From contig CM059431.1 in NCBI GenBank assembly GCA_030390025.1, positions 125,862,001 through 125,926,000 on the forward strand: DNA of 64,000 nucleotides, written 5' to 3'. The notes beneath the pieces are model-generated. The model had not been told where the DNA came from, searched no databases, and worked only from the letters and a program-made list of their open reading frames with translations. Positions 6,388-63,402 of this stretch are shown piece by piece. Within the stretch, counting starts at the first letter, position 1. The number at the start of each line of letters is the position of its first letter. This stretch comes from Squalus acanthias (Eukaryota). Made by a program: the position numbers and the translations under genes.

Positions 6388-6391
6388 GAAA

Positions 6392-15368: not shown

Positions 15369-15749
15369 TAGGAAAATGGCGTCACTCCCGCTCGCCACGT
15401 GCGCCGCGGAAGTTTGTACTCATTGTAAATACGTTGGAAACTCGACATGTTTAAGAGTTGGGATTTGTTTATTTTGGTGATGGTGTTGATTGTTTGGTTT
15501 TGGGTTTTGTTTTTCCTTTCCCTGAATAAAAGACAAATATACAGGTGATGCGTGAGGTATCGGCCTGGTTACGCCGGAAAGGAAAACAAGTGGTGTAAGT
15601 TTAAGGGCAAATGATGCCTACGGTGATATAAAATGTGATTTTCTTGGGAAATGAGGACGACACAGAGACCCTAGTTAAGTTAAAATTTATGGGATTAATT
15701 TACTGGATTCGGAGTGAAATCGAGATAAGATTGCTCACCACTGAGATTT

Positions 15750-15790
15750 TTGATACGATAAGCGGAGTTATTCGCATCAACAGGAGGGAC
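15750..15790 (+). promoter_or_regulatory. Short polypurine tract (AGGAGGGA) within a conserved 41-nt block
   Basis: Abuts the 3' LTR; identical to 40764-40804 (-) in provirus 2. Confidence 0.75.
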
Positions 15791-33526: not shown

Positions 33527-35552
33527 GGTCGGTAAATTAAATCCTTCCTACAATGTCCAAAGCGTTTCCAGCCTCCAGAAGAAGCAAGGCTGCTTGCAGG
33601 CCTTAAACCCAGCAGCACTGATGACGTCATCGGAGGCGACTTTCAGGATGGAAAGACTAATTGCGCCAGGGGTTCCCACACACTGGAAATCAAGTGCCCA
33701 ATTAGGGGAAAATCACACTTTTTTCCCACTTCTCATCGGAATCGGGGTCCTGACACGAAAACCACCTGACACGCCTCAGCCCGTCCCCAATGGCAAAATC
33801 GAGCCCTTTGTGTCCTCACAACTTGCTTTCCCACCTATCTTTGTATCGTCAGCAAATTTGGCTACAGTACACACGGTCCCTTCATCCAAGTCATTAATAT
33901 AGATTGTAAATAGTTGAGGCCCCAGCACTGATCCCTGTGGCAGCCCACTAGTTACAGTTTACCAACCTGAAAATTACCCATTTATCCCGACTCTCTGTTT
34001 TCTGTTAGTTAGCCAATCCTCTATCCATGCTAATACATTACCCCCAACACCATGAGCTCTTATCTTGTGCAGTAACCTTTTATGTGGCACCTTATCGAAT
34101 GCCTTTTGGAAATCCAAATACACTACATCTATTGGTTCCTCTTTATCCACCCTGCTCGTTACATCCTCAAAGAACTCTAATAAGTTTGTCAAACACAATT
34201 TCCCTTTCATAAAACCATGACTCTGCTTGATTGTATTATGATTTTCTAAATTACTTCCTTAATAATGGATTCAAGCATTTTGCCAATGGCAGATGTTAGT
34301 CTAACTGGCTTATAGATTCCTGCTTTCTGTCTCCCCCCTTTCTTGAATAGGGGCAGTACATTTGTGGTTTTCTAATCCACTGGGAACTTTCCAGAATCTT
34401 AGGAATTTTGCAAGATTACAACCAATGCATCCACTATCTCTGCAGCCACTTATTTTAAGACCCTAGGATGCAGGCCATTAGGTCCAGGGGACTTGTCAGC
34501 CTTTAGTCCCATTAGTTTGCCCAGTACTTTTTCTCAAGTGATAGAGATTGTTTTACGGTCCTCCCTCCCTTTTGCTCCTTGATTTTCCACTATTATTGGG
34601 ATGCCGTTAGTGCCTTCTACTGTGAAGACAGATACAAAATATTTGTTCAAAGTCTCTGCCATTTCCTTGTTTCCCATTATTAATTCCCCAGTCTCATCCT
34701 CCAAGGGACCAACAATTACTTTAGCTACTCTCCCTCTTGAATTAAAAAAATACTATTAGGTACCTTCTAAGGAGTGAGTTCTTTCATGTTTTTCGATCCA
34801 ACACCTGTTCCACTGTGCCCTCCTGTTATCTGTTAGTTTTGTTTTCAAACATGACGATGGGAATTGAGACAATGGAATGTATGTGTGAGTGCAAGGTCTT
34901 TTTCAAGCATCTTTAACAACTACGATTTCCCTTCATGTCCACATATGTCCTGCGTTGCTACATCACAGTAATATTTATACTTTACTTTTGTACTTTTCTT
35001 TTTAGTCATGTAAATTATTTAGGATCTACAAACAGTATATACCATGGTCACTCTTTCATTGAATACGTCACGGGGGTGAAATTGGGCGCTATGAGGCCCC
35101 TTAAGCATTGATAATGGTGTCTGCGGTGGCCATGCACACGTCCGACAGGAAGTGCGGTGGTCACCATCTTTGTAAGGGTGTTAGCACGCGTGCACCTAAC
35201 ATCCGCTGGCAGCAAGCAGAGCAGGCGGATCATGACGTCAACCAGCGTGCAACGCTAATTTGACGCCAGCTCTACCATTGTGGTGCTCCACGCTCCACCC
35301 TATGCCCTCTCTTAACCCCTTACACCTGAACACGACGTTAAACGGCATGAATAATCCCCTACCAGCGCTATTTAAAGGGCTCATCAACTACTTGCAGATT
35401 AGTTGCTGGTTTATTTCTGCTGGCTGTTGCTGCAATTCTACGTGTTTTGAGTGCTTTCTATAGTTGGTTAAAGTTTCAACCGTCTACAGGGAGTGGTGAA
35501 GTACTTTCTTTGCAGATTTAAAGGTTTCTGCATAGACCAATTGCTCCCAGGC

Positions 35553-36785
35553 ATGGGTGTACTAGTGGGCCTTCCTCTTGGCATTGAGCATGACTCGGAG
35601 AATGAAAAGAGGCCACGCAGAGCAGGAAAAGCTGTTCAAAGAGGGAGGAAGAGAAGGGGGTGAAGGACTCTCAGCAGAAGACCATATCTGCAAGAGGCTG
35701 TTTAGGGAGCAATTCTCATACCTGAACTTTAACGACAACCAATGCATAAGACGTCGGCGCTTCACTAAAGAGGTCGTGACTGAAATGTGTCACCTGTTGC
35801 AGTCACAACTCCAGCCTCAGAGCAGGACAAGGACCGCATTGCCTGTGGCTGTGAAGGTGACTGTGGTTCTGAACCTCCATGCATCTGGCTCCTTCCAAGC
35901 GGCTGCTAGAGATAAGCAACATCTCTCAGTTTGGAATGCACTGCTGCATAAGGGAGGTCACTGAGGCTCTCTATGCAAAGAGAGATAATGTCATCTCATT
36001 CCCTTTTGCCAGAGAGAAGTAGGCGGAGCGAGCGCGATGGTTTTTTAAAATTCATTCATGGGATGTGGGCGTCACTGGCAAGTTGCCCTTGAGAAGGATT
36101 GCAGGCTTCCGCATGCTGCGGGGTGCCATTGATGCACGTACATTGCTTTGCGTGTGCCTCATGTGAACTCTGCCATGTACCTGAAATGAAAGGGATTCAA
36201 CTCCCTTAATGTGCAGCTGGTGTGTGACCACAGGCAGCGCATCATGTAGGTCAATGCCCGGTATCCTGGCAGCAGTAATGATGCATTTATTCTGTGGCAG
36301 TCCTCTGTGCCAGCTGTATTTCAAACACCACGGCAAACCAAAGTGTGGCTAATGGGTGATAAGGGCTATCCACTGATGACATGGCTCATGACTCCGGACC
36401 GCAATCCACACACAGGTGCACAGCAGGCATAGAACGAGTGCAATTCTGCCCTAAGAAATCTTACAGCAGACCATTGGTGTTCGAATCAGCAATTCTGCTG
36501 CTTGGACTGCTCTGGAGGAGCCCTGCAGTACTCGGCTGAGCAGGGCTCAAGATTTGTTGTTTTATGCTGCATGCTGCACAAGCTGGCCATCATGAGGGAA
36601 CAGCCCTTGCCACCACCTATCAGGTGAGAAGCTGAGGAGCAGGAGCACGATGAAGAGGAGGTGAGGGAGGAGGAGGCAGAGGAGGAGAAGGTGGAAGAGA
36701 ATGAGGCGGAAGAGGAGGAAGGGGAAGGGAGGCTGCAAAGTAGATAGCCCCTTTCTGCCCTGGCTCTACGTGAACAAATAATTAA
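35553..36785 (+). pseudogene. Harbinger transposase, decayed
   Basis: FTKEVVTEMCHLLQ...VAVKVTV, GAID, NVQLVCDH, GDKGY and CCMLH motifs with several stops and frameshifts. Confidence 0.88.
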
Positions 36786-37545: not shown

Positions 37546-39105
37546 ATTGAGTGACACCAGCAACCTGAACCCCAATTCCCCATTCACCAACAGTCCCACG
37601 CTACTTACATTTCCTCTGTCACTGACCATCATTCCAATCCAAATTTATAAAGTAAATCATGCCATAGAGCATACAAAAATTCCCTTAGTGCCTCTTTGCG
37701 TGCCTTTGCCTGTCCTAGTGCTCCTACGAGGTGCTTCCCCAGTGTCTGCAGCATGACTGGTAGAAGGCTGCTGACTTTCAGTGGAGAAGACTGCAGATGG
37801 CCTTGGAGGGCGACCTCGAGCAGCTCTGGGCATAAAAGGCCCAGCTGTAGACTGCACCATCTCGGCATGGGTGGCAGCAGTCTGGGATGGCTGGCTGACA
37901 GGCAACAGCAATGGCAATGGCAGAGTGACAGGGGTGGGAGCACGAATGCTGTCATACTGATTGGACAGCAGGTTCACACTCCATGGAGCCACTGCTACTC
38001 TCCTGGGGCGGAGCCTCAGAAAGCCTAGTACTCTGTTAGAGATCAGATTGCTGGCGTGCTGTGACACCTTGTTAGCCCCTTTGAAAGGTATGTTCTAGAG
38101 CTATGATGGCAGCAGTCTGAGCTTGCATGGCAGCAAGCTGAGATTGCATGACAGCAGTCTGAGCTTCCACTGCAGCACTCAGACGTTGGGTGGATGCAGC
38201 TTGTGTTGCAATGGAAGCTGAGACATCCGCCATTAGCTGCTGCCTCATGTTTGGCTCCACAGGTGTGCTGCTGGAGGTGTCCACCCATTCTATGTTGGAA
38301 AGGATGGGCTCCAAGCTCTGCGCACAGCCCTGTGCCAAGTTGGTGTCAGACTCCTCCATTCTCCTTAACATTGAATGCAGGCTTTCTGGCAGGCTTTCCA
38401 GTGCACCAAGCAGAACCAGTGTGCGACCTCTCGCTCTGGCATGTTGGCACCTGCGTTGTCCTTTCCCCCTGCCCTGGCGCCAGTGCACTTGTGCTGAGTG
38501 TCTCACCACATGCAGATCCTGCCTCGATCGTATCCTCTAAATTACACGCAGTGTCATTATCTGAGCTGGTGGCTGTGACTGAAATTGAGTTATGGAGTGT
38601 CTTCATCTTTACTGTTTTCTTGTTCTTCCTCCACTGCCTGGGCAGGTTGCAGTTCTTGGGTATCTGAAAGGAAAAAGGGACAAGGATAGGGCTGTGGTGA
38701 GGGGAGAGGAGAAAGTAAGAAGTGCGTGCTTACACCATCAGCAGTTTCTCAGTCAGAAGAGATCGTGGGATGAGGGAGAAGTGGGATGAGAGAAGGAGGA
38801 TTAGGTATACAGATATCTTCATCTTCAATCGCTTCATCCCCGCTGGTGACCACAGCTTTAGCAATGGCCCTTCCCATAATGGCCAGCACTATCTCCTCGG
38901 TGGGGGTTAGAATATGCAGGTGCACACCTCACCCTCCGGTTAGTTCCTTCTGCCTCCAGTTGTGCGCCAACTTTTCCTGCAAGAGAGAGGGCAGTGTGTC
39001 AGTGAGTGTTGTGCAATCTGTGTGGGAGATGTCACTGTCATTGCTGAATAGCTTGCAGTGTGTGCAAGCTGTGAGATGTGGGTTGGAGGCTTACAACAGT
39101 GCTAA

Positions 39106-40763
39106 TGTAAGGGGGAACGTGTCTCTCAGACGGTGCTGGTGCGAGGTTAGGCTTTCGTTGCCTAATACTATTGCTTGCTCTGGTCTCCGGCCAGCCCTTT
39201 TGCAATAAGCACCTGTGAGTGGTTCGACCCACTCGCCCTTACGGTTCTAACACTGGACTTAGGTGCAGGGAGCAGTAATGCAGAGAAAACTCAAATAGAC
39301 CTAGTTGAATAGTACGAAATGGAAATCTTTATTGCATAGCGTCCAAAATCATGAAGTACATGTCATAGGCGCAAATCAATGAGAGTACAAGTATACATAC
39401 ATTCATAAAGCTTGGTCTATGGAAATGAAGAACACACGGCACATCGTAGAAAGGGGAACACATTATATCTTAACCTTAAAAACTACCCTCCCTTAACAAT
39501 ACCTACACTACGTCTAGATTTGTAGGATCGCAAAACATGCTCACCACTCGTGTTAGTTCGGAGAATTTTAAAGTGAGGCACTTGGCTCGTTTCGCTGCAG
39601 CGCCTGACTGTCACGTGTTTGGAAGGGTCTCTGCACCCCACTTGTTCATTTTCGCTGCTGTGACAAGCAGGCCAGGCTCCCTGTTGTCATGAAGAACTCA
39701 ACAGAACTCGGACACAGTTCAAAGAAAAGTCTTCCTGTGCTCGATACCGGTTGTCGGGAGAACTCAAAGGAAAGTTCTTTATTTATATTTTCGGGCGCGG
39801 TCGGGGTTTACTGACCGTGGCGGCACGTGGATTCTTCTCCTCTTCTTCTCGTCTCGTCTCGTCTCTTCGGGCCTCCGGGTCCAGACACCGTTTACCGACA
39901 CTCGGGATGGTGCACCCTGTTACTTGCCCTTGTCGGGGCGGCTCGTTCCGATTGAGCTCCACCCAACACTCGCATAACCGACCAGTACGGCTATAAGTCA
40001 AGAGTCAACAAAGTCCAGAGAGAAAACACAGAAGGCTGCCCGTCCAGGAGAGTGCTACCAGAGGATAAGAGTTAAGCCCGAGTTAAAAGAATAAGAGCCA
40101 GCCGGGAGAATAAGAGACCGATGGACATTTGTTCTCTATAGTTATAGTGATGTGTCCGCTTATCTCCCGCTCAAATCTTAATGTTTGTCCTTTGTGTAAT
40201 ATTGGCACTCAAAACTCCCAGCATGGGGCGGTTATCTTTCTTAAAGGGTTTCGGTAGCACCTGAAACTGGCCAACTATCCGTTAATGTTTTCCCCATTGT
40301 TGAACCAGCCAGGATGTGTACGAATCGTCTCCCTGACTGGTTTTGGGGCCCCCCAAATACTTGCTTAATCACCCGTCAATGTCTCTCTCATTGTAGAGCC
40401 GGGGGGGTATTTGTGTATTGATGTGTCTGGATGGGCCTTCGATTGCCCAGTACAATGATCCTTACTGTGCATAGGAAAACGATTCCAGCACTTATATCTT
40501 TGCTATTGTTTCAAATGCAAACGGGTTGCATCCTGTCTATATTAGTGTTTACCGAGTATGATCCAATCTTATACTGAAATGTATATTCAATGCCATCTTG
40601 TCTGCCCACTGTGTCTCTGGAAGCTTCTGCCACGATGCGCGGTGGCCATTTTACAGGCTTCTGTGTCCTTTATTATCATGACAGCATTTCATTTAATAAA
40701 ACTGATCAAACGAATCTGCTTCTCTTATGTTATTTCGAATCGCGATAATTGCGAAACTTTACA
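39106..40763 (-). repeat. 3' LTR of provirus 2 (1658 bp)
   Basis: Repeat of 46861-48497 with scattered substitutions and a ~21-bp indel. Confidence 0.95.
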
Positions 40764-41159
40764 GTCCCTCCTGTTGATGCGAATAACTCCGCTTATCGTA
40801 TCAATTAAAAATGGTGGTGAGCAAAATTATCCCGATTCTCCACATCCAAACACTCCCGGTAATTAAGTTTATCTAGGGCCTCCATGCAGTCCTCATTTCC
40901 ACAGAAAAATTACATTGTCTAAACTTGGACAAACCGTAGGCAGCATTGTCTTTAAACTTACACTGCGTATACGCCTTCCAGGTGCAAAAGGCCGATGCCT
41001 CTCGCACCACCTGCATATGCATGTTTTATTATAAAAGGAAAAATAATCAAACCAACTGTTTTAAAAATACAAAAGTTCCAAACTTAGTTACACATACTCA
41101 TAAATAATAACAATTACAAAAACACACACGGTAAAATGGAGCGGCGTCATCCTGGCCGT

Positions 41160-43510
41160 TTACGCGGTACTTTCCTCGTTCACACGCATGTAACGTTCTC
41201 TCCACTCCCCTGTGTTCTCCTGCCTCATGAGGCGTTTGCCTCTTTTGCAGTGTACGACCAATAGGTACACTACAATTACAACTTGACACACTACCAAAAT
41301 GTGGGAGGCTATCCTGATCCATGACGGAACTTCAATATTAGTGAACAGATCCCACCACAGTGGGACTACTATGTCCAGTATCTCTGTCCCTATCTCTACA
41401 GTCTTTTGTTCTAGGGTGTAAAAATGTTTCTGTGATACCATGACGGCTTTTAAAATCTTGGTGAGGTGTTCAGGGAGAGGGGGAATGATGTATCCGAAAT
41501 GCGCGACGAATCGCTGCAAGTCTGTGAAATTCTCTTTTACTGTGAGGTGAACAGTGGATGGTTCAGGGATCGGGACAATTCGCTGTTGTGCCACTTGAAC
41601 TTCAGCCCTGGGTTTAAAACAGAAACTGCTGTCACTCACTGGACACCGGCTGTGCTGTCCATGCTGGTAGTGTTGCGCTGCAGTGGTAACGCAATACGTT
41701 CCACCCCCTATGTATGCCACCTGTGGGGGCACATGATCTTGTGTCATTGCTTCCATGGTGCAATTCATGGGCTTCGCGCCAGCCGTTCTGAACCCGCATT
41801 GTGGTGTTAAAAAGGCATTCAAGTGCTGGGGACACAGGATGATGTGTGCTCCCCGGCCACGACAACCCAAAAGGTTGGTACCTGTCATCGTTTGCTCCCA
41901 GCGGATGACGTAAGGTGGGACCGCTGCATAGCGAATGTGGGCTCCCCCCTGAATGACTCCGATGTTCTCCACCCGGTACACCGGGGCGGGCTTTGCCATG
42001 TCGCCCAACACCGGCATCCGTACCACTATACCCATGATAGTATGGTTTGACCGTCCGCAGTCCACTGGGACTGGGTATGCCTCTGAGGCTAGCCTGAGCT
42101 GGTACGGGCTTAATGCGTTCTGAAAAGGGTGGAGCGCCTGCAGGTGTTTGTTACTTATCCAGGACGGGACCAAACCTTGTTTTAAATCCTCCAAATTACT
42201 GCGGCCCTCGCCCAGTAACCACGCCCTTTATAGTACGCACACCTCGTTCTGCGCAGCTTGATCGGATGCATTCCGATCTTCCCTGATCAGGGCATTTACC
42301 GTTCTCGCATGCTTCTCCAGTTCTGCTATAATCTCTTTTAAGTGGAGTGTCATGGCCTGGTCCTCATGTAACTCAGACCCTACTACCTTGTTCTCGCTTG
42401 TGAGGATGCTTTTTAACTGTGTTTTTAAACCGTTGATCTGGGTCTGCAGCTCCACATTGTCTAGAGCGTTGACCACAGATGTCCCGTAATAAAAGCAGTG
42501 AACACATCGTTCACAACACCCCTTCTTTGTCTCCCCACCTGACCCAAAACTTCGTGTGGTGTGGTGTATAAGCTTGTTTTGTCAACCTCTGCAAAATCAA
42601 ACTCATAAAATTGCCTGAACATGTTTGTTAACAGGACCTGGTACAATTGTCCCGTTTCTTTGGGACACCACTCTGGTAAATGCACCTCGGTGAGATTTAG
42701 AATCACCGAAGCCACCGCGTAATGTACCCCTTGATATAGTATCTGATCTGTTGGCACCAGTACCAGACCATTCCTGGGCCCCTTAGTGGTTTTAGGGCAC
42801 CCTTCCTCCTGAGCCAAAGCCGCCGGAATCGTGGGCGGTGACTTGCGTGGGCGCGTGATGAGTTCAGTGGCGTTTACCGGGATCGGGGAGAATGGAGCTC
42901 CGCACCCGCTGGTGCTGACATCCCACCTCATCCCTTTCCCATCATCCTGCCACTGTTGTACGAAAAATATGGATATACCCCTGGGGCAAACGTACTTCGA
43001 TCCCCACATACAAACATATATTCCCTCATCCGGTTCCCACCATTTGTCCCAACAGACTTTCACTTGTCCGTTAGTCCCCGTAATTATTCGATGGGTATTG
43101 TTACCCAATCGCTCCCACTCGACCGAGGAATTTCTCATAGTCTTGCTTAACTTCCGTAACCACCACCATCGGCTCAATGGGACCTTCCCATTGCACGTCA
43201 AACAAATCCCTTTGCCGGCGGTGACGCTGATTCTGGGTGCAATGATCCTCACCCTGGGACACAGTAAAGAAGTCTCTTTGTAGGCAAATCCGGATGCGCT
43301 GGAGTATTCCGTCGAATTCGTTCCCAGCCATCCCGGCCACCTTCCCTTGTGGAAATAAGTGGCGGTTTCCTCAGCCTCTCGCTCCCCGGTCCCATCCGTC
43401 GCGATGGGGGCCGTGTCCCCGGAGCAACCGAACGCAATGACATCCTTGGTGAGGCCCCGATAGGCCAATCCATATCCGATCGTTGCGAGCACTATCAGAA
43501 TCCTTTCCAT
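41160..43510 (-). pseudogene. env: env of provirus 2 (one frameshift ~42485, one in-frame TAA at 42228-42230)
   Basis: Three ORF pieces colinear with env 13017-15368, including the Ig-like domain, RQRR and TM. Confidence 0.93.
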
Positions 43511-43779
43511 CTTTCTTGGTTCCTCTGATCAGATAAAATGATGTAGCCAGCCTCCCAAGAGTCTCTGGCTTTTGTGAAGGGTGAGCGGGTCCCTTGACCT
43601 CGTCTCACGTAAAAAGACATGTATGCTGGATAGACTTTAACTATTCCTATCACTAACTCCCATCACTTTACCATTTACTTAAAAATTAAACTACAATCTT
43701 ACCAAACTTAAAAAAACTATAAACTTAAACTTATCCTAAACTTAACTGTACAGCGCCGCCCGTTCCCAGGGCGGCCTAC

Positions 43780-45068
43780 CTAAATTCTGCGAAGGCTGCC
43801 ACGAGCTTTTCCCAGTGGCGGGGGGGCACTGACCCCTTCCTTTGATCTGCCGCAGCCTGTCCCCGCTGCGCTGGGACTGGGATCTCCCTGGGCTGCCTTG
43901 AACTTACGCCTGGGGGTGTACGAGGGATTTGACCACAACTTCCTGGGCTGGGGTGTCCGACTCGACCTACGGAGGGCTACCTTGGGCAAGATCTCCAGGG
44001 CCGACGGACCGGGAACCGAGACTTCCACCGTCACGGCCTGTGGTCCCACCACAGCCGCCGGCTCTGTCTCCCCTGGCTCCGCCCCCCTGGGCTCGGGATT
44101 TGCAGTTTCCGACTCCACCTTACTTGCTTCCCCAGTAAGTGGAACTCCACTCGCAATCCCTATCTCCCCTATGGGCAAGACTTCCAGGACCGACGGACCG
44201 GGCACCGAGACTTCCACCGTCACGGCCTGTGGTCCCACCACAGCCGCCGGCTCTTGTCCCCTGGCTCCGCCCCCCTGGGCTCGGGATCTGCAGTTTCCGA
44301 CTCCACCCTACTTATATGTGGAACTCCACTCGCAATCCCTATCTCCCCTATGCTTGGGTCGAGGGCGGGACCTTCGTCCTCCGACCCCACCACCTCTCCG
44401 ACCGGGTCACTACCTTGGTCGAGCTCTCCGAGCTCTTCCTCATCTGAATCCCAACCCCAAGAAAATATCCTACACTTTTCCAAAATGTCCTCTCCCCTCA
44501 GGCAGGCTGCTTTTCCGGTCTGTGTGCCCTGCGGTTCTACCCGGGGCTGAGAGTCCCCACTCGCAGGTCTGGCCCCTCCCCTAAGACAGGCCACCGCCCC
44601 TGCTTGTGCATTTTGTGTACTCTCGCCTGCTGGAGGCTGAAGATTTCTATTCTGTTTTAGTTTGGGCAACTCTGCTACCATGGCTTGCAACTGCGGGGTG
44701 GTGAATTCCCCCGGGGTTGTTGAGCAAACCCTCCCTCTGGCTTTGGATAGGACTTGGGTCAGACCTTTTATCCTTTCCTCACAGGGCCCATGGTTTAAAT
44801 CCTCATACTCCCTGCTCCTGGCTACCCTGTAGGCTGCCTTTATGTCTCTAAGCTGTCCTTCCAGCCCGTCTACTTTCCCCATTAAAGGGGCGTTCTCCTC
44901 CCGTAAGGCCTGCTCTCTAAGCTGCCCTTCCAGCCCGTCTACTTTCCCCATTAAGCGGGCGTTCTCCTCCCGCAAGGCCTGCTCTTTTAACCTGACCTCC
45001 TTACAGGAGACCCCGACCTGTGCGTGTCTTTCAAGGGGACACAGGTAGGTAGGCTGCACCGGTTCCAG
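43780..45068 (-). other. Post-gag reading frame: 10-codon pol stub, gag-like coiled-coil cassette, then Pol tail homolog with internal duplications
   Basis: LEPVQPTYLCPL matches LEPAQPVYLCPL of provirus 1; ends GCGRSKEGVSAPPPLGKARGSLRRI like 12726; frameshift near 44255. Confidence 0.8.
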
Positions 45069-46856
45069 TCAGAAGTCTGGGTTGGATGGGGCTGTTGCTA
45101 CCTTCCCGTGCGAAATCATAAGAGACCGCATGGCTCCTAACATTGATTCTATCGCATCGGGATGGATAGGCACACCAGCTCCTTTCTCAGAGACAGGCGC
45201 TTGGGTTCGGACTGCGGGAGCTTTGTCCCTGGAGTCCTTCCAGGGTTTCCTGCAGTTTTTACGCCAGTGACCTGTCTTCCCGCACCCGTAACAAACACCA
45301 CTGGTTTGTGGGGCGCGATTTCCCTCCTGATGCCACTCTTTCTGAGCCGGAGCTGCGGGCTTTGCCTCATGCTCCTTTCCCTTAAGGGGACGCGCTCCCG
45401 TGCTCCTAGTGTTCCGATACCCTATGGTGAGTCGATTTAGGACAGACTCCTCCGTTGTGGCGGGGTTAGTGGGATCAAACCACGCTCTGGCCTGCTCCCT
45501 CACGGCTGGCAAGCTGTTGGCTTCTAGACACCTGAGCCAATGAGCTTTCCCGGCGCCGTTCAGATAGGTGCGCGCTGGCGCACCTGGGCAGCTACGCTGG
45601 TATACTGGCCACAGTCTGTCGGCGAAAACCTTCGGGGGTTCTCCCTCCATCTGTACGGTCTGACTCAATCTGACGAACGGACCTTCGTCATCCGCCCCTA
45701 ACACTTCTAGGACCTCATCCCGTAACTCCCCATAGGTTTTATTTCCCTTCTTGCTCTCGTCGGAGAGACACTGAAGGATCGAGCTATCGAAAGAGAACAG
45801 CAACATTTTGGTCTTTTCCTTGTCGTCGCAGCCATTAATTGCTGCGGTCTGTTCTACTTCCCTAAAATGTACGGAAGGGTCTTCTGACTCAGACAGCTTC
45901 CGTACATGGCTAATCATTGCTCTCAGCTGGTGTGAGCTGTGGGGCAATACAAGTTGGCTCAGGATATCCCCGTCTTCCCCATTGTCTGCATTCGGGCCTC
46001 GCTTGTGACCTCGGAGCGGACACATCGGTCTCGGTCTCGACACTACCTCCGGGGATTGTCCTACCTCGGGAACCTTCTTCTCTATTTCCACCACCTCCTC
46101 GCTTACCCAGGTTGCCGAATAGCTGGGTGCGCGGAGGGCATAGTGGCAGATACCTCCTCTGCTTTTTCTGGTAGAGATTTTGGGAATTCCCTACCCACCT
46201 GTGGCTGGTTTGCTGACGGGCTGATGAGACACACCAAGCCATTTGCCTTATTCAGGGCCTCTCTTAGGTTCCCTATCTCCTTCTGGCAAAACTGTGGTCG
46301 GCTCCCTCATGCCTATCCTCGAGGGCCATCTTATATGCCGCCCTAACTCCCTTCAAGCTTTCTTCCTGGGCTTTTATCTGGTTAGCTAGGCGGGCACACC
46401 GTTCTCTAATCCTACCCTCGTTTAATTTTGCTTCCGTGACCTGACATTCTAGGTAATCAATTTTAGCCTCATGGTGGTTGGCTACTATTTGGCGTTCCTG
46501 ATGTAATGCATTCAATGATGCAATGAGTTTCTGTCCTACCGTGATCTTTTCCTCCATCTCAACTTCCAGTTCCCTGATCTGAGCTGCCTGTGATGCAATG
46601 ACCTGGTCCGAAAGTTGGACTTGCTTCTTGTAGCACATCAGCCAGACCGGTTTCTCTACCGACTTCTTATTTTCTTTACTGCCTGTCCATTTGATGGCGG
46701 CGTCTAGCGGACACTTATCCATCAGTAGGTCACTTATCCACTTTTTGGTTAAGTTAACACATAGTCGGCTACCCTCTCATCCACCACATTTCGCCTATTC
46801 AAACCAGGGTCTAAAACATTAATCTCCTGCTGCCAATGTCCTGCCGCGGTCGCCAT
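45069..46856 (-). pseudogene. gag: gag of provirus 2 (several frameshifts in the 5' half)
   Basis: ATG at 46856 overlapping the PBS; pieces 46273-46722 and 45069-46094 align with Gag 6392-8203, including CYGCGKTGHWRKNC. Confidence 0.92.
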
Positions 46857-46860
46857 TTCC

Positions 46861-48497
46861 TGTAAGGGGGAACGTGTCTCTCAGACGGTGCTGGTGCGAG
46901 GTTAGGCCTTCGTTGCCTAATACTATTGCTTGCTCTGGTCTCCGGCCAGCCCTTTTGCAATAAGCACCTGTGAGTGGTTCGACCCACTCGCCCTTACGGT
47001 TCTAACACTGGACTTAGGTGCAGGGAGCAGTAATGCAGAGAAAACTCAAATAGACCCAGTTGAATAGTACGAAATGGAAATCTTTATTGCATAGCATCCA
47101 AAATCATGAAGTACATGTCATAGGCGCAAATTAACGAGAGTACAAGTATACATACATTCATAAAGCTTGGTCTATGGAAATGAAGAACACATGGCACATC
47201 AAAGAAAGGGGAACACATTATATCTTAACCTTAAAAACCACCCTCCCTTAACAATACCTACACTACGTCTAGATTTGTAGGATCGGAAAACATGCTCACC
47301 ACTTGTGTTAGTTCGGAGATTTTAAAGTGAGGCACTCGGCTCGTTTTGCTGCAGCGCCTGACTGTCACGTGTTTGGAAGGGTCTCTGCACCCCACTTGTT
47401 TATTTTTGCTGCTGCGACAAGCAGGCCCGACTCCCTGTTGTCATGAAGAACTCGACAGAACTCGGACACAGTTCAAAGAAAAGTCTTCCTGTGCTCGATA
47501 CTGGTTGTCGGGAGAACTCAAAGGAAAGTTCTTTATTTATATTTTCGGGCGTGGTCGGGGTTTACTGACCGTGGCGGCACGTGGATTCTTCTCCTCTTCT
47601 TCTCATCTCGTCTCGTCTCTTCAGGCCTCCGGGTCCAGACACCGTTTACCGACACTCGGGATGGTGTACCCTGTTACTTGCCCTTGTCGGGGCGGCTCGT
47701 TCCGATTGAGCTCCACCCAACACTCGCATAACCGACCAGTACGGCTAAGAGTCAAGAGTCAATAAAGTCCAGAGAGAAAACACAGAAGGCTGCCCGTCCA
47801 GGAGAGTGCGACCAGAGGATAAGAGTTCAGCCCGAGTCAAAAGAATAAGAGCCAGCCGGGAGAATAAGAGACCGATGGACATTTGTTCTCTATAGTTATA
47901 GTGATGTGTCCGCTTATCTCCTGCTCAAATCTTAATGTTTGTCCTTTGTGTAATATTGGCACTCAAAACTCCCAGCATGGGGCAGTTATCTTTCTTAACG
48001 GGTTTCGGTAGCACCTGAAACTGGCCAACTTTCCGTTAATGTTTTCCCCATTGTTGAACCAGCCAGGATGTGTATGAATCGTCTCCCCGAATACTGGCTT
48101 AATCACCCGTCAATGTCTCTCTCATTGTAGAGCCGGGGGGGTATTTGTGTATTGATGGGTCTGGATGGGCCTTCGATTGCCCAGTACAATGGTCCTTACT
48201 GTGCATAGGAAAACGATTCCAGCACTTATATCTTTGCTATTGTTTCAAATGCAAACGGGTTGCATCCTGTCTATATCAGTGTTTACCGAGTATGATCCAA
48301 TCTTATACTGAAATGTATATTCAACGCCATCTTGTCTGCCCACTGTATTTCTGGAAGCTTCTGCCACGATGCTCGGTGGCCATTTTACAGGCTTCTGTGT
48401 CCTTTATTATCATGACAGCATTTCATTTAATAAAACTGATCAAACGAATCTGCTTCTCTTGTGTTATTTCGAATCGCGATAATTGCGAAACTTTACA
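46861..48497 (-). repeat. 5' LTR of provirus 2 (1637 bp)
   Basis: TGTA...TACA termini, followed on the minus strand by GGAAA and the PBS. Confidence 0.95.
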
Positions 48498-51400
48498 CTA
48501 AGTGTGTGAGGGTGAAGTGAAACATGTGAATGTTAGGCATAAATCCTGATTGATAGAGATTGCGGGTAGGTGAGTGATTGGGGTTTGGTGACTTGAGCAG
48601 TGGCTGAGGCTAGTGGTGCAGTTAGTAGGATATGGCATTTGACAATGCATTCACTGACCTTGACCACTCGTATGAAATCATTACACTTCTTCCTGCACTG
48701 CATCCATGTTCTTGGAGCTATTCTCCTGGCATTGACTTCCGCTGCTATCTCTTGCCACTGCTTTCTGAACAAGTGCCTGGAGGGTGTCCTGCCCCCACCC
48801 TGAAGATGCAAGACATCGCTCCTCCATTCCACCTCTTTACTCGAGACCTCCAGTGCAGCATCTGAAAACCTCGGTGCCCACTCTCTCCATGGTCAGCCAG
48901 TATTGATTATTGCACAGAGCACTATCCAGCAGCCACAATGTGCCTCCCCTTTAAGAGGTGGAGGCTAGCTTTAAGTAGTGTTAGGCACTCACGATATTGG
49001 TTCCCCTGCTGATGCCGCAGCCAATGAACAGCGCGGGGAGCGCTGGCTGCATGAAGAAATCATGGTAAAGCACAGACAGCACGAAGTTGGCATCCTGCCT
49101 GCATTTGAATTAGCATGCGCGGGTTCAACGTGTATCGCGATCCTTGTGCCAGTTTTCAGGGTTATCCAATTTAACCGCCCATCATGTTTACAAAGCTGGA
49201 AGTAATATGCTTTTTCTTCCTGTGGCTTTTTGCAATTTGGTAGCCTTTTGCTAGTTTGAAGCAAGTTTTTACATATCTCTCCTGCCACTAATGCATTGCA
49301 AAATGTGAGTTTGATAATCCTGTAACATGTTTCATCACTGAGAACAAAATCCTCTACACTTTACAGATATTCTCAAAGGGAGCTGAACCTATTTCTTGTG
49401 GTACAAATGCACCCATAGTTGAATTTGTTTCACATCTCAACATGTTACAAGGAAATGAAACTGTCAGTGACCTCGAAAGCTAGCACAAGATATGTGCAAA
49501 CAATTGAATGCTCCAGCAGAAGATTACCATCAAGATTTTTTGTGATATGGGAATACCAGAAAATGGATTTCCAGCAGAACAGAATACAAATGTCAGACAT
49601 TACTGCTTCAAGGTTCCTGCATTCCAGAGCTCTAGACCAGGAAAGTGCCAATGAACTGGAAAAGGATTCAGATACATTGTGGCAGAGAAATTGGCCCAGT
49701 TATCGCCACCCATTTGCGCCGCTGTCCTGATGAAAATTGGCAGCCGCCACTCTAGCGCCCTTCTCTGGAGCGGGACTCGGCGGCTGCCATTTTAGTGAGG
49801 GGCTTATCTGGCCCTGAGATCTTAATGAAGAGAGCATGATGTCATGCCAACTTGACAACACCTCTGCGAACTTTGACCTTAACGCTGAGTTCAGCGCTAG
49901 GTCCTAAGCTCGCTCTGAAAAGTGAGCGTTCAGCAGACTGACAGAGATGCTGTCAGCACTTCTTAAAGGGACACACACATCTTTCAGGTAAGTTTGCATT
50001 TAAGATTTTGGATTTTTTTTTTGTTTATTGAAGTAGTGGCTTGGTGCGATACATGTTAAACGTTTCTTAACTGTGTAGGAAGTGCAGGGAGTGCTGCTGG
50101 ACACTTGCAAGGCCTCGGATAGTCAAGGAAGGCCTCTGAGAAGACAGAAAATGCTGGAAATACTCAGCAGGTCAGGTAGCTTCCATGGAGAGAGAAACAG
50201 AGTCCACATCACAGGTTGAGATGCTGCCTGACCTGGTGAGTATTTCCAGCATTTTCTGCTTTTATTTCAGATTTACAGTATCCGCTCACAGAGGGAAGAG
50301 GAAGACGCAGAAGAGGAAGATGCAGAAGAGGAGCAAGCAGAAGAGGAGGAAGCAGAAGGAAGGTGCAACCCAGACAGCCCCTTTTTGGTTGGGATATCTG
50401 GGATGGAATCATCCACCTGTAGTCTCAGTAACCACAACCCCAATTCACCTTTCAACATTTGTCCCACACCTTACCATCCCTCTGTTACTGACCATCACAG
50501 TGTCCTCTTGGCCACAATGGTAAAATAAAAGCCACCACAAAGCAAACTTTCTAATCCAACTTTATACATCTAGCCATCCAATATGACATCAAGAAATCAA
50601 CTCATCACCTTTATGCATTCCCGTAGTGACTGTCTTGTGTGTGCCTTTGCCTATCCTACTGATGTCACGCAGTGCTACCCCAGTGGCTGCTGCATGGCTA
50701 GTAGAAGGCTGCTGACTTTCAGTGGGGAAGACTGCAGATGTCCTTGCTGGTCGACCGTGAGGAGCTGGTGGCTGGGAGTGTCAAATCGAGTGACGGTGTT
50801 TCTTCTTCTTTTTCTTCTTCTTTTCTCTCTCTTATCCCTCTTCTTGGTCACCCACTGGCTGGGCAGGCTGCATTTCTTGGGTGTGTGAAATGAGGAAGGC
50901 ACAAGGGTGGAGTTGTGGTGAGGAGAGGGCGGGAAAGCAAGAGGTTCATGTGAGAAGGAGGATACTGTATGAGGATACCAGAATCTTGTATCCTTTCAGC
51001 CACACCACTGTCAAAGGGCTCAGCCATGCCCCTGCCAAGAATAGTCAGCACCGTCTCCTCCAAGGGAGTGAGGTGAAGCTAGGATTGGGAGCTGTGCCTC
51101 ATGTTTGGTACAGATTGCTGGTAAGTGAGTGATTGGGGGTGGCGGGGGGAGTCGTCCATTGAGCAGTGTGTGAGGCTAGTGGTGCAGTTGGTAGGAAATG
51201 ACTCTTGAAGATACATTCACTGACCTTGACCAGTGGTCTGAGGTCATGAAGCTTCTTTGGGCACTGGAGAAAGGTCGACACTGCTGACAGTGATGGCCTC
51301 AGTGATCTGGTCCCACATCCTTCTTTCTATAGGGCCTCCTGGCACCTGTGGGTAGAGGACCTCTCTTGCAGTGTTGACTCCCTGCACAAAGCTGGAGTGC

Positions 51401-52161
51401 TGCGTGCGAGATCCTGGGTGCCTCTTCCTGGCTTGCTGAGCCATTTGTATTGGTGCTGAAGCATTTTTCCCATTTTTGTATGTGTGGAAGTGAATTCAGC
51501 TTTAAGAGCAGAAGACTCCCAGTTGGGAAATCTTTTTAATGTTACATTTTTTTCAGAAAGTAGTTGAGCTGTAAGGGCTAAAAACTGCTTATTTTTACAT
51601 GATTTTTATTTTTTTCATTTGAGAAGGCAATTCCCCTTTAAGAGGCCAAGGGGTAAAAATTCAGTTGGTTGCGCCTCCCGTTAGCGCCTTAAATGGGCGC
51701 TAATGGGGCGTTAAGGCGCTAACGCCCGGGCGCAGCGCTGTTTGCGCCGCTCGAGAACTTAACTTGAGATTGTGCGGCGGCGCTAAAACTTACCGCTGCG
51801 ACCACCTGCGCGCGCAGATTGTGACGTCATTCCGTGGTGCAACGCCCTTGGGGCGCCCCGGAGTGGAAATTGAGTGGCGCCCCCTGCCTTACCACCTGGC
51901 GCTTCCAACGACCGGAAGACTGGAACGTTATCAATCGGTGTGGGGCTGGGGGGGGCGCTATTTAAAGGGGGCCTCTTCCTGTCTTTTTCTGTGGTCGACA
52001 TTTATGCACCACTCGTTCTGAGAGAGAGAGAGAGATTCGGAGAGAGAGAGAGAGAGACTTCTACATTGACTCAACGCTTTGTGAGGTAGTTTTGCCTAGT
52101 TCATCCTAACTTTGCTGCTACTTTCGTTGCTGTACCTCATTACTTTTCTGGCAAAGAGAAT

Positions 52162-53322
52162 ATGGGGGCTGCAATGATTGGGGGCGTCGTCCTGCTCCAG
52201 CTCAATCGGAGGAGAGTGAGACGCAGACAGAGAGTGGCAATGATGGCCAGACGGAGGAGGGCCATCAGGCGCATGTACAGGAGAGCTTACCCTCCCAGGG
52301 TATATCGTGAACAGCTCTCCTACATCCACATGTCCGAGGAGCTGTGTTTGCGAAGGCTGCGATTCAGCAAGGAGGTGGTCACTGAGCTCTGCCACCTGCT
52401 GCAGCCAGATCTGCAGCCTCAGATGAGGTCCAGGACGTCTCTGTCGGTGGCAGTGAAGGTCACAGTGGCTTTGAACTTCTACGCCACTGGCTCATTCCAA
52501 GCTGCTGTTGGGGACCTCGCCAATATCTCCCAGTTTGCGGTGCATCGCTGCATCCGGCAGGTCACCAATGCCCTCTTCACAAGGAGACGAGACTTCATCT
52601 CCTTCCCTATGACCCCAGACAAGCAGCATGACCGTGCTATGGGCTTTGCGAGGGTAGCGGGCTTCCCCATGGTGCAGGGCGCCATTGACTGCACGCATGT
52701 GGCTTTGCGTGCTCCGCGAGAGAATGCAGAGGAGTTCTGGAACAGAAAGGGGTTCCATTCCTTGAATGTGCAGTTGGTCTGTGACCACAGACAGGTGATT
52801 CTCGCTGTCAATGCCCACTATCCGGGCAGCTGCCACGATGCTTTCATCCTGCGCCAGAGTACTGTGGCAGAAATTTTCGAGGCACCGCATCAGCCAGTTG
52901 GTTGGCTTCTGGGGGACAAGGGGTACGCATTGAGCACCTGGCTGATGACACCGCTCCGTGCGCCAAACACCCCTGCTGAGCTGCGGTACCAGGAAAGCCA
53001 ACAAGCAACGAGGAACATTATTGAGCGCACAATCGGCGTGCTCAAACAACGATTCCGCTGTCTGGACCATTCCGGAGGAGCCCTGCAGTACTCGCCTGAG
53101 CAAGTTTCCAAATTCGTAGTGGTGTGCTGCATGTTGCACAACATGGCAATCCTCAGGACGCAGCCAATGCCACCAGGCCTTGCAGCACCACAAGAGGAGG
53201 AGGAGGAAGAGGAGGAACAGGCCGAGGACGATGATCAGCAGCAGCACCAAGGCAGGAGGGCGGCCCACAATGGTCAAACTGCAAGGGCCGTCCGTCAACG
53301 ACTAATAGCAAGCCGCTTCTAG
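52162..53322 (+). CDS. Harbinger DDE transposase (HARBI1-like), 386 aa, open
   Basis: HTH region plus catalytic motifs GAIDCTH, LLGDKGY and NIIERTIG; YPGSCHDAFIL; AATAAA at ~53484. Confidence 0.95.
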   Translation: MGAAMIGGVVLLQLNRRRVRRRQRVAMMARRRRAIRRMYRRAYPPRVYREQLSYIHMSEELCLRRLRFSKEVVTELCHLLQPDLQPQMRSRTSLSVAVKVTVALNFYATGSFQAAVGDLANISQFAVHRCIRQVTNALFTRRRDFISFPMTPDKQHDRAMGFARVAGFPMVQGAIDCTHVALRAPRENAEEFWNRKGFHSLNVQLVCDHRQVILAVNAHYPGSCHDAFILRQSTVAEIFEAPHQPVGWLLGDKGYALSTWLMTPLRAPNTPAELRYQESQQATRNIIERTIGVLKQRFRCLDHSGGALQYSPEQVSKFVVVCCMLHNMAILRTQPMPPGLAAPQEEEEEEEEQAEDDDQQQHQGRRAAHNGQTARAVRQRLIASRF

Positions 53323-53616: not shown

Positions 53617-55473
53617 CTACTTTTTGCCCTTCGAGGGTGATCTCCTTCCCTTGCGCACTTCCCCCCTTCTAACCCTACTGCTCCTCCGTAATGGGACCTC
53701 AGTGGCTGCAGCAAGGCTGGTGGAAGGCTGCTGCTTGTCAGACCCTGACACTGCAGATGCCCCTGAAGGACGGCCTCGACCACTTCTGGGCCTGGAGGGC
53801 CCGGCTGCAGACTGCACCAACTCTGCATGGGCGGCAGCAGTCTGTCCTACAGGCGGTGGCAAGTGCAGTGGAGAAGTGACAGTGTTGGCAGCAGGAATGC
53901 TGTCATCGTGAGAGAGGACAGCAACTCCCTGCTCGCCCGACACACTGGCACTCCCACGGGGCAGCACTTCAGCATCCGGAGCAATTTGCCGGAGAACAGA
54001 TTGCTGGCCTGCTGCGGCGCGGTGACAGCCCCGGGGACATGTGCACGAACCATCGAGGATGGCAGCAGTCAGTGCTCGCGTGGCCTCAATCTGAGTCTGC
54101 ATGAGAGCAGTCTCAGATGGGTTCCTGGCAGCCAGTGACTGAATTGCAGCAGTAAGCTTTAGTGTGGCATCCGCCTGTGCTACAGCGAAGTGCTCCACAC
54201 TCCTTGCCAGTGCCTCAATGCATTCGGGCACCCTTCCCACTGCACCCATGAGCTCAGTGTGCATGCCCACCGCCTGGCTGTTCATTTCTGCAATCAGCCG
54301 CTCCTCCTCTGCGTCCATTGCATTAGGAGTGTCTGGCATACTCTCCCTCTGGGGAGAAGGCTCCCGTTCTTCCCTCCCCCCCCCCATGGCGTTGCTGCAG
54401 CCCGCTGGGTCCTGGAACTTCACCATCATCAGCCCCTTCCCCCCTGCTCCCCCGTTCTTCCCTCCCCCCCCAATGGCGTTGCTGCAGCCCGCTGGGTCCT
54501 GGAACTTCACCATCATCAGCCCCTTCCCCCCTGCTCCCCTCCGGGGAAGGCGTGTTCCCAGTGTGGCCATGGGCTTCCTCGGGAGAGGGTGGCACTGATG
54601 CTCCGGCTTCCTCTTCCTCCTCAGCTGCAGCATCACTCCCAGTGGCAGCTTCAGGGACCATCTCCTCAGCTGGTGAATCACCATCTGAAAGCAGGGAGGT
54701 ACAAGAGTGGCTTTAGCGTGAGGACAGGGTGGCAGTAAGGGAGGAATAAGTGCAGCGAGTTAGCAAGTTGGATTGAAAGTGTCAAAGGCTGGTATTGTGA
54801 GGGACAAGTGGAAGGACAGAGGACAAAAAGGTGATGACCTTACCATTGCTGTCCACAACGGGGTCGGCGTCTCCAGTGGCGACGGGACCGATCACCCGGC
54901 TTGCCACAATCCTGTGGACGCGCTCCTCCAGATCGCTGAGGGGTTGCAGCTGAAGCCGCCCTCCACCCGTCCGTTGCTGCTGTCTCCGATTATGAGCCAG
55001 CTTAGCCTGCAAGAAAAAGGACAGCATCTGAGTCAATATACAGCCATGGTCTTGCCTGATGTGCCTCCCATAGGTGAATAGCCCTTACTGTATGCAAAGT
55101 GTGGAATGTGTGTGTGTGTTTGATGAAAGGGCCATAGGTGTTGCATGAGTGTTGTGCATTGGGGTTTTAAGACCCTCTGGCCATAGAGTGAGGTTGAGAT
55201 GGAGGGATGGAGAGGTATTGAGAAAAAGCCACTCACCCTGACGACCCGAGTGAGGTCGTTGAACTTTTTGCGGCACTGGACATGGGTCCTGGGCACCATG
55301 CTCCTGGAGGAGACGCTCTGAGCCACCTCCCTCCACACTCTTCTGAACTCGCGTGGCAAAGGCCTCCTGCCACTCTCCGGGAACAGCATGCATCGTCTGC
55401 GCTCCACTGCGTCAACCAGAGCATCCAAGGCCCGCTCGGTGAAGCGATGAGCGCGTTCTCTCACCCTCTCCAT
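53617..55473 (-). CDS. Harbinger MYB/SANT-like partner protein, 3 exons, one homopolymer frameshift
   Basis: Exons 55473-55237, 55006-54844 and 54684-53617 (phases 0 and 1); WREVAQSVSS...RTHVQCRKKFNDL; one extra base in the G10 run (54376-54385) inside a ~87-bp tandem duplication. Confidence 0.8.
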
Positions 55474-56164
55474 GCTTGGCAGCAAAATGGATTACAGGTC
55501 TCTCCAGGCTGAGATTCAAGGCTGCAATGAGCAGGGTGTGGCTGGTGAGCAAGTGGCCCCCCCCGCTTTAAGAAGTGTCCGGCGCCAGTGTGTCTGTGTT
55601 CCCTCGCTAACTGGCAGCAGCTGCGCTGCGCTCGTGCGCTGAGGTAGCGCCTCACTCCTAGGCCTTTGCGCCTTAAGAGAGGTGTGCAGCGCCTAATTTA
55701 GCGCTCCACTCACCTCCCGGGGCGGTAAAAGTGAAGTTTCCTGTCAGTGCCGATAATTAGCGCCAGGCGCTAATATTTGCGCGCGGACGATATTTGTGCC
55801 CCAAATGGGGCGCGACCTAATTTCTACCCCCAAGACTGCTTTCTGAAATGACAACTTTGCTTTCAGAGCAAGCTGCTCTTGCTGTAATGATGCTATGGCC
55901 ACGCTACACTGGAGCCTCCTGCCAGGACGAACGCCACCAGGACGGCATTGCACAGTGAGTTTAGCGATGGGCTAATGTTAATTAGTCCCCAGCGCCAATT
56001 TTTCAGTTCTGGCAGTGCCACCTTTTTCGGTGGCCATTAACACCGGCCCGCAGTGGCACCGGCAACTTTTGTGGCGTTCACAAATTTCTAGGCCATAGTC
56101 TCATTGCTCTGTCTGATTCTATTAGTCCTCTAAAAGATCAAGAATACAAGGCAAGTATGAACTG

Positions 56165-61237: not shown

Positions 61238-63402
61238 ATAGAAGCATAGAAGATAGGAGCAGGTGTAAGGGGTTCGGGTGGCTCTGTGCTTAGCCTGGGT
61301 GCTAGTGCGGGGTTAGGCCTTGTTGCCTGTTCTGGTCTCCAGCCAGCCTGGTAGCACTAGACACCTGTGAGTGGTTCGACCCACTCGCCCTTACGGTTCT
61401 GACACTGGACTTAGGTGCAAGAGCAGCAATGCAGAGAAAACTCAGGTAGACCCGGTTGAATAGTACGAAATGGAAAATCTTTATTGCATATTGTTCAAGA
61501 TTACGAAATACATGTCATAAGCACAGATTAATGACAGTACAAGCTTACATACATTTATGCAACTAGGTTTAGGGAAACGAGGAGCGCACGACACATCGTA
61601 AAAGGGGACACACATTATAATTATCCTTAAAACAAAACCCTCCCCTATTAATACCTGTCCTAATCTAGATCTGTAGGATCGAGAAACATGCTCACCACTC
61701 GTGATAACTCGGAGAATTCTAAAACGATGCTCGGATGTTTTCGCCACAGCACCTGACTATTCACGTGTTGATCAGGGGTCTCTGTACCCCACTTGTTTAC
61801 TCGCTCTGCTCCGGCTAGCAGGCTGGACCGTCTGCTGTCATGAAGAACTCGACAGTGCTCGGGCCCGGCTGTAGAACTCAAAGAAAAGTCTTTCTGGACC
61901 GACACCAGTTAGCCGGTAGAATTCAAAGAAGAGTCTTTGACCAGTTCATGCAGTAACCTGTAGAGTTCAAAAATGGTCTTTATATTTACGGGCGCGGTCG
62001 GGGTTTACTGACCGCGGCGGCACGTGGATCCTTCTTCTTTTCTCATCTCATCTCATCTCTTCGGGCCTTCGGTCCAGACACCGTTTACCGACCTTCGGGA
62101 CGGTGCACCCGATTTCGCAGCGCGCCACGAGGTCGACCCCAAAAGGGATCAGTGGAACAAGAGAGAATAACGGTCATCTGGGATAAGAGCCAAAAGACGA
62201 TTCCAAGCGAATGAAAAGGATAAGAGAGCGATGGACGTTTGGACACTACAGTTATAGTACTGTAATTCCTTATCTCCCGCCCAAACTTAATGTTCATCTT
62301 TTGTCATGTTTTGGCGCTCAAACTTCTTGTATGGGGTGGTTCTTGTCGTTAATGGGTTTCGGTGATACTTGTAGCTGTCTAAGTACCCGTTAATATTTCT
62401 CCCATTGTGGAACCAGCTAGGAGTCTCCCTGGAGGGGTTTTTGGGGGCCTCCGAATTCTTGCTGTGAGTACCTGCGAACGGCTCTCTCATCGTAGAGCCG
62501 TGGGGAATTTGCGTATCAATGTCTTTGGATGGGCCCTTGATTGCTCAGTACAATAGCCCTCGTTTGTGTATGGAAAACCGATTCCAGCACTTATATTTCT
62601 TGCTTAGGTGTCAAAAATGCAAAACGATCGCGTTTTGTCTTATATCAATGTATGCTGAGCATTGTCCGATCTTGCTGAAATGTTTATTTGAACGCCATCT
62701 TGTCTGCCTACTGAAAGTCTAGAAACTTCTGCCATGAGGCGCGGCGGCCATTTTACAGGCTTCTTGTGTCCGTTTTGAAACCTGACAGCATTTTGCTGAA
62801 ATAAAACTGTTTTAACGAATCTGTGTCTCTTTTTCTCGTTATTTCGAAATCGCGATAATTTGCGAATTCTACACAGGAGTAGGCCATTCGGCCCCTCGAG
62901 CCTTCTCCGCCATTTAATGAGATCATGGCTGATCATCCAAATTCAGTACCCCGTCCCTGCTTTCTCCCCATATCCCTTGATCCCTTTAGCCTTAAGAAAT
63001 ATATCTATCTCCTTCTTGAATATATTTAATGAATTGGCCTCAACTGCCTTCTGTGGTAGAGAATTCCACAGGTTCACCACTCTCTGGGTGAAAAAATTCC
63101 TCCTCATCTCAGTGCTAAATGACTTACCCCTTATCCTTAGACTGTGACCTCTGGTTCTGGACTCCCCCGCCATCGGGAACATCCTTCCTGCATCTAGTCT
63201 GTCTAGTCCTGTTAGAATTTTATAAGTTTCAATGAGATCCCCTCTCATTCTTCTAAACTCTAGCGAATATAAGCCTAATCGACCCAATCTCTCCTCATAC
63301 GTCATTCCTGCCATCCCAGGTATCAGTCTGGTAAATCTTCGCTGCACCCTCTCCATGGCAAGAACATCCTTCCTCATATAAGGCAACCAAAAGTGCACAC
63401 AA
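61238..63402 (-). mobile_element. CR1 3' fragment split by a solo LTR
   Basis: ORF2 C-terminus 62943-63398; 3' UTR continuous across the LTR (GGAGCAGG|AGTAGGCC). Confidence 0.88.
61264..62873 (-). mobile_element. Solo LTR of the same ERV family (1610 bp)
   Basis: TGTA...TACA termini, TSD CAGG (61260-61263 and 62874-62877); its U3 end (TGTAGAATTCGCAAATTATCGCG) is closest to the provirus 1 LTR. Confidence 0.95.

Follow-up and report, generated by a model that had tools for sequence, protein, structure and literature searches.

In the bovine C/D, MusD/ETn and KoRV/recKoRV systems, a central segment of an endogenous retrovirus (ERV) has been described as swapped for old retroelement sequence, with the flanks conserved (PMC10924933). 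In the mouse, the non-autonomous sub-family IAP 1Δ1 has an open fusion frame that is reported to help retrotransposition in cis (PMC7411935, PMC6466679), and the BHIKHARI elements Bik-1 and Bik-2 of zebrafish have been placed in the lokiretrovirus clade and described as having moved recently (10.1101/2024.03.25.586437). Here we characterise a provirus, B, in a 64-kb stretch of Squalus acanthias DNA (the window, meaning the whole stretch that was analysed), in which 3662 nt of the pol of its neighbour A are represented by 456 nt lying in frame behind the gag stop. We read B, with a probability of roughly 0.55, as a decayed copy of an enzyme-less, many-copy ERV lineage that carries a trimmed foreign gag in frame, acquired by template switching, and that was copied with borrowed Pol.

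Provirus B and its neighbour A

The window contains two proviruses that are relatives of each other, A (4668-17510, plus strand) and B (39106-48497, minus strand), the features of the latter being collected in Table 1. Provirus A is full-length and very young, with LTRs identical over 1720 nt, a target-site duplication (TSD) of GGTC and intact gag and env; its pol changes frame near 11410-11545, before the SH3-like end of the integrase, and is followed by a 280-aa disordered tail. Provirus B has the TSD CTAA, and its LTRs stand at a K2P distance of 0.028, which gives an age of about 64 million years at 2.2e-10 per year, the substitution rate assumed in PMC4422223, this rate being uncertain. 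The LTRs, TSD, primer-binding site (PBS) and polypurine tract (PPT) of B are all intact, and the PBS core and PPT are identical in A and B. ARAGORN found no tRNA within the 64-kb window. A tblastn search of B with the 1113-aa Pol of A (P0003) gave no match, with no protease, reverse transcriptase (RT), RNase H or integrase core; the retained tail of B begins after the SH3-like end of the integrase. A sequence-only reading of this DNA had called the element non-autonomous, and the loss of every Pol enzyme domain bears this out.

The gag of this copy changes frame near 46756, 46300 and 46124. The open frame behind gag had been read as running on to 43780, a claim that has to be withdrawn for this copy, which changes frame near 44260. 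A 190-nt duplication (90% alike) in the pol tail of B, at 43983-44352, adjoins that frame change; its differences give mixed signals, at 2 synonymous to 1 not and 0 to 7. The LTRs of both proviruses are unusually long (1.6-1.7 kb), and in both the gag ATG overlaps the PBS (A, 6388-6410; B, 46830-46860). A solo LTR of B's family lies at 19907-21537, with the TSD CCTG and a K2P distance of 0.10 to both B LTRs.

Provirus A resembles the lokiretroviruses, as these have been described, in its gag-pol-env order, its tether and RNase H and its cleaved Env (PMC7947760, PMC9040795). The Pfam matches of its Pol, RT_RNaseH (470-602) and RNase_H (650-793), are common to all retroviruses and so are not specific to this clade. 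Its Env cleavage site is RQRR, that described for lokiretroviruses being RXKR. The RTs of MLV, Ty3 and foamy virus were matched in the PDB at similar scores, the best integrase match being that of foamy virus. The Env of A matched neither PF00523 nor any PDB sequence, and its structure model, made with no alignment, was unusable (pLDDT 37). In the ESM Atlas, Gag fell near Ty3-type gag clusters at 0.90-0.93 and Env had one match at 0.84, both being leads only. The main text of the lokiretrovirus paper PMC7947760 makes no mention of sharks or cartilaginous fish. The surface part of A's Env (13254-13520, plus strand) has a weak immunoglobulin-like signal (Pfam Ig_3, E 0.58; PDB 1f97, E 1.3). Elsewhere in the window, a 410-aa ORF (52090-53322, plus strand) and an adjoining ORF (55033-55491, minus strand), with decayed copies at about 17500-18100 and 35500-36700, may represent a Harbinger transposase and its Myb/SANT partner, which they resemble by eye.

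Table 1 Features of provirus B (positions in the window)
Feature	Position	Strand	Evidence or remark
5' LTR, 1637 nt	46861..48497	-	TSD CTAA at 48498-48501
PBS, core as in A, overlaps gag ATG	46830..46860	-	
Own gag, 58-68% identical to A's Gag	45072..46856	-	tblastn
gag stop TGA, context UGA-CUGG (A: UGA-CUAG)	45069..45071	-	
pol stub of 12 codons (identity to A, 9/12); 5' junction ~45033	45033..45068	-	
Linker, 11 codons, origin without match	45000..45032	-	gags, pol, tail and reverse-complemented stub gave no significant match
Gag coiled coil, probably foreign, with tandem 69-nt duplication	44847..44999	-	units 44984-44916 and 44915-44847
Gag coiled-coil end with HxxC motif, probably foreign	44721..44846	-	z 13-20 against six gags, 0/1000 shuffles each; tree
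6-codon bridge between HxxC piece and capsid-start motif	44720-44703	-	
Capsid-start motif	44649..44702	-	10/14 identical to P0008, 0/1000 shuffles; not significant against A
Extra pol-tail-like piece	44577..44648	-	11/21 aa to A's tail
C-terminal tail of resident pol, after the integrase SH3-like domain	43780..44576	-	frame change near 44260
env, 86-88% identical to A's Env	41160..43528	-	frame change near 42500, stop at 42230
3' LTR, 1658 nt, PPT as in A just before	39106..40763	-	TSD CTAA at 39102-39105

Anatomy and origin of the cassette

Behind the gag TGA (45071-45069) the frame continues with CTG and is then open for 282 codons to 44220; it opens on the pol stub LEPVQPTYLCPL (45068-45033), just as the sequence-only reading had described. 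DNA homology to A ends at about 45034, after the stub, and restarts at 44577. The 3' junction had been placed near 44640, at the residues QAGAVACLRG; these lie in an extra tail-like piece (44648-44577), and the border with resident pol DNA moves to 44577 accordingly. Between the two borders the insert consists of four pieces, namely the linker, the Gag coiled coil with its HxxC end, a capsid-start motif and the extra pol-tail-like piece. For the linker, a fold-back of the stub and a copy of the tail piece were both considered and neither was significant (equalled by 127 and 111 of 2000 shuffles, respectively).

The coiled coil carries two 23-aa units, as had been noticed, which turned out to be similar rather than identical copies (65/69 nt alike, one residue differing). 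The stretch DIKAAY...GRVC (44846-44721) follows directly after the second unit, and the second motif, TTPQLQAMVAELPKL, starts at 44702; between it and the HxxC piece, to which it is joined, about 90 residues of Gag are missing. Both stretches had been aligned with Gag by eye. For the first this stands: BLASTP against A's Gag gave 26% identity over 119 aa (E 2e-8; 0/2000 shuffles), and hhalign against an 8-row gag alignment gave a probability of 97.6% (E 4e-12), establishing that the cassette has profile similarity to Gag. The second motif was not significant against A's Gag, its partner in the alignment by eye (298/2000 shuffles; 83/1000 in a second test) and weak against B's own gag (4/1000), and reached significance only against outside gags (P0008, 10/14; P0010, 10/24; each 0/1000 shuffles). 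A search of 1.84 billion representatives returned nine matches, five of which were gags of B's family and four generic coiled-coil repeats; the named gag relatives were from Scyliorhinus torazame and Rhincodon typus. Pfam found only coiled-coil noise on the cassette. In total the Gag-derived scraps amount to about 110 residues with no capsid fold. An 'ORF' in such a pol slot should be annotated with caution, this one being a mosaic of scraps and no new gene.

The cassette had been held to be more divergent from the two resident gags than these are from each other and to have come from a third lineage; the former was confirmed and the latter supported. In one comparison over 43 codons, 13 residues agree between the cassette and B's gag (30%) and 8 between the cassette and A's, against 29 between the gags of A and B (67%). 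The Gag stretch shows 42-47% identity to P0007, P0010 and P0011, 36% to P0008 and 40% to P0014, the last belonging to the A/B clade. In a tree of 9 rows and 66 columns it groups with P0007, P0010 and P0015 (support 90/88), and the AU test rejected a grouping of cassette, A and B that had been named beforehand (p 0.008). The cassette could instead go back to an ancient copy of the gag helix of B's own lineage and have changed rapidly afterwards; it is homologous to B's gag (15/50 aa) and accompanied by a tail piece that matches B's own tail in DNA. This reading is very improbable given the tree and the AU test, and given that the cassette has no DNA similarity to the gag of B or of A (400/500 and 163/500 shuffles score as well). 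Overall, a foreign origin of the Gag stretch from a third lineage appears well supported by these comparisons, and we consider it probable. The extra tail piece (DNA match to B's own tail, 0/2000 shuffles; to A's tail, 705/2000) may be the tail of the other lineage or an old duplication of B's own.

No donor gag was found by word-indexed protein searches (E 0.1) among 405, 1621 and 415 candidates, which is weak evidence, as the 405-candidate search also missed P0008; three viral and metagenome contig scans likewise found no relative. Single contigs from two public runs (X6, X11) follow the cassette over part of its length and diverge from it at 45000, 44706 and 44650, and three contigs diverge at 44577, as uninterrupted relatives would. 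The 44577 border had been fixed before this check and those at 45000 and 44648 were set afterwards, so that these latter coincidences are not independent. A solo LTR of a third related family (61264-62873, TSD CAGG), 74-80% alike to the LTRs of A and B, is a possible candidate for the LTR of the donor lineage. In P0011, a predicted protein of Rhincodon typus, the same coiled-coil/HxxC stretch is joined, by eye, to an apparent Env start; this protein may represent another deleted element or a gene-prediction artefact.

Copy number and use of the frame

Twenty public runs from nine studies had contigs matching part of the stretch, and those of four were examined. Over 44360-45700 there were 1170 contigs in X1 (organism code A), 632 in X6 (code B), 440 in X8 (code D) and 47 in X11 (code A), the last counting as presence of the cassette only and not as expression. 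X1 possibly represents the sample from which the window itself was sequenced. The cassette was covered in 39 of 40 run-bins (10 bins in each of 4 runs). Median summed contig depth, which is not copy number, was 18,630 (X1), 1,702 (X6), 499 (X8) and 62 (X11) across the cassette; in the same order of runs, the tail had 20,783, 2,311, 754 and 27, and gag had 35,232, 7,516, 1,107 and 46. One cassette site had as many as 22 variant contigs, which requires more than one diploid locus. Three joints were bridged with at least 31 letters on each side, at 44577 (X8 record 27), 44703-44720 (X11 record 11) and 45000 (X11 record 12). At the 5' junction the best crossing contig had 25 letters on the stub side, among 32 of 2295 pieces listed, and the X1 depth was equal on either side (32,562 at 45016 and 32,286 at 45050). 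Sub-lineages in X8 and X11 have lost 138 nt of the cassette in frame, including the capsid-start motif.

A rearrangement that happened once, after insertion, or a misassembly would accord with the single copy in the window and with a 5' junction that none of the listed contigs formally bridges. With hundreds of variant contigs in three organisms and three internal joints bridged, we regard such an accident as next to impossible. The structure is thus not single-copy, and we are highly confident that the cassette element is a multi-copy replicating lineage, seen here through contigs and not as separate loci with TSDs.

Comparison of A and B gave dN/dS values of 0.11-0.21 for gag and env, indicating purifying selection, and 0.48-0.61 for the less constrained tail. 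The four joints of the cassette are all in frame (1/81 if random). Five of six cassette length variants are in frame (p 0.018), or three of four (p 0.11) when two skips with an unknown middle are dropped; one variant, of -70 nt, is out of frame. Cassette variants shared between copies were all synonymous (4 to 0) and those private to this copy mostly not (1 to 6; Fisher p 0.015, or 0.033 per codon). The same variant test gave 8/4 shared against 0/4 private in gag (p 0.038); in the tail, synonymous changes were not in excess (1 of 4). The counts are based on 33 of 40 rows listed among 180, seven rows mainly from X11 being left out, and the four shared synonymous sites all fall within the second repeat unit, to which contigs of unit 1 or of the donor may have been aligned. 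A 3:1 synonymous excess between the 69-nt units (p 0.04) was not counted as separate evidence, because the four differences are compatible with drift after insertion and their sites overlap with those in the variant test. It should also be borne in mind that homologous crossovers preserve frame unaided and that the case was chosen for being in frame. Taking these results together, we would put selection on the cassette frame at even odds.

The stop context of A, UGA-CUAG, corresponds to a reported readthrough context (10.1101/2021.04.18.440353). The hairpin 3' of A's stop reached z -2.1 at one of three lengths; that 3' of B's stop was no more stable than shuffles (z 0.1 to 0.5). Readthrough of B's gag stop, as judged from its context alone, is plausible only, since the reported context is that of A and B has CUGG with no significant hairpin. 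The sequence-only reading had gone further in proposing that the element encodes a Gag-Gag' fusion protein. For this copy the proposal fails, as three gag frameshifts preclude such a fusion, and the supposed second gag is a set of scraps.

Proposed origin and comparison with known systems

On the reading that we favour, a genome of B's lineage would have been co-packaged with that of another lineage, which carried its deletions beforehand or was trimmed afterwards, and template switching would have exchanged pol for scraps of the other genome before rejoining in the pol tail. The product would have kept all cis signals together with gag and env and been copied with the Pol of intact relatives. 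The frame would have stayed open by virtue of translation into the cassette aiding the packaging and copying of its own RNA in cis, as is reported for IAP 1Δ1; the support for such a cis benefit is weak. On this reading the open frame may count for more than the particular Gag' residues, with which the in-frame loss of 138 nt in the X8 and X11 sub-lineages fits. A Pol helper acting in trans is likely, given the absence of Pol and the PBS, PPT and LTR ends that B has in common with A. Provirus A need not be that helper, being only a cousin of B (dS 0.4-2.1 by gene) with a frame change in its own pol.

The same helper-dependent lineage might instead have carried the cassette as a neutral passenger or RNA-level spacer, the frame being open by crossover accident and the stop not usefully read through; Pol could then come from spliced RNA in B's family. 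The stricter indel count, the sub-lineages that have dispensed with the capsid-start motif and the unremarkable hairpin of B all sit comfortably with this, and bovine D-type and ETn elements are described as having spread with no ORF (PMC10924933, PMC6466679). Against this, several of the joints are deletions or of unexplained origin, not homologous crossovers, and still every one preserves the frame, as does the loss of 138 nt; the shared variants, too, are synonymous. We hold this explanation to be possible but rather doubtful. Gag' might also function as a protein, a second coiled coil on readthrough Gag serving to multimerise or to poison helper capsids in a defective-interfering or self-preferring manner; defective-interfering behaviour had been suggested in the sequence-only reading. 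The coiled coil is kept in every variant seen and has been lengthened by an in-frame duplication of 23 residues, the shared variants are synonymous, and D-type elements have been reported to outcompete their helpers in cattle (PMC10924933). Such a Gag' would, however, sit after the nucleocapsid domain at minor readthrough levels and with no capsid fold, and a helper can be outcompeted without any protein; we find a protein function unlikely. The fullest form of this idea, in which an ERV lineage captured and duplicated the Gag coiled coil of a rival and displayed it, where Pol would otherwise be, on readthrough Gag so as to give its own RNA an advantage or hinder helper capsids, in several cartilaginous-fish species and over tens of millions of years, is unlikely to the same degree.

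Returning to the favoured reading of a helper-dependent lineage with a foreign gag in frame, B would document the recombination of two divergent retroviral lineages in an early-branching vertebrate, the product of which out-amplified as a family that depended on helpers and had gag and env retained. Should selection on the frame hold across loci, the IAP 1Δ1 effect would have an independent instance in nature, testable from the copy sequences alone.

B has the pattern of a recombinant ERV, with intact LTRs, TSD, PBS and PPT, absent enzyme domains, a central segment that is probably foreign and many copies. It resembles IAP 1Δ1, as far as the latter is described, in being non-autonomous and in having a rearrangement that leaves an open fusion frame. 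In IAP 1Δ1 a simple deletion has fused the element's gag and pol, both its own; it has no env and depends on Gag supplied in trans. B, by contrast, retains gag and env, and the extension behind its stop is foreign. The primary paper on IAP 1Δ1 is reportedly Saito 2008. Like B, zebrafish Bik-1 and Bik-2 are described as lacking Pol and as having a Gag headed by a coiled coil (10.1101/2024.03.25.586437). They differ from B in encoding Gag only, Bik-2 having neither pol nor env and no foreign insert being described, and Bik-1 Gag has a glycine-rich tail where B's family has a zinc knuckle.

The closest likeness is to recKoRV (KoRV x PhER; PMC6112702), the ERVK[2-1-LTR] D-type of cattle (PMC10924933) and ETn/MusD (PMC6466679), in which, as described there, the centre has been swapped, the LTRs and gag/env flanks kept and amplification achieved through a helper, the last of these being our supposition for B. 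A literature search, with most subscription papers and supplements outside its scope, returned no case of a foreign gag in an open frame behind a stop with gag and env full. Unlike recKoRV, the D-type and ETn, B has kept the whole of gag and env under purifying selection with only pol replaced, and its foreign piece is gag, placed in frame behind the stop. Overall, the kind of element to which B belongs is known from recKoRV, ETn and the bovine D-type, and a foreign in-frame gag combined with full gag and env is what sets it apart.
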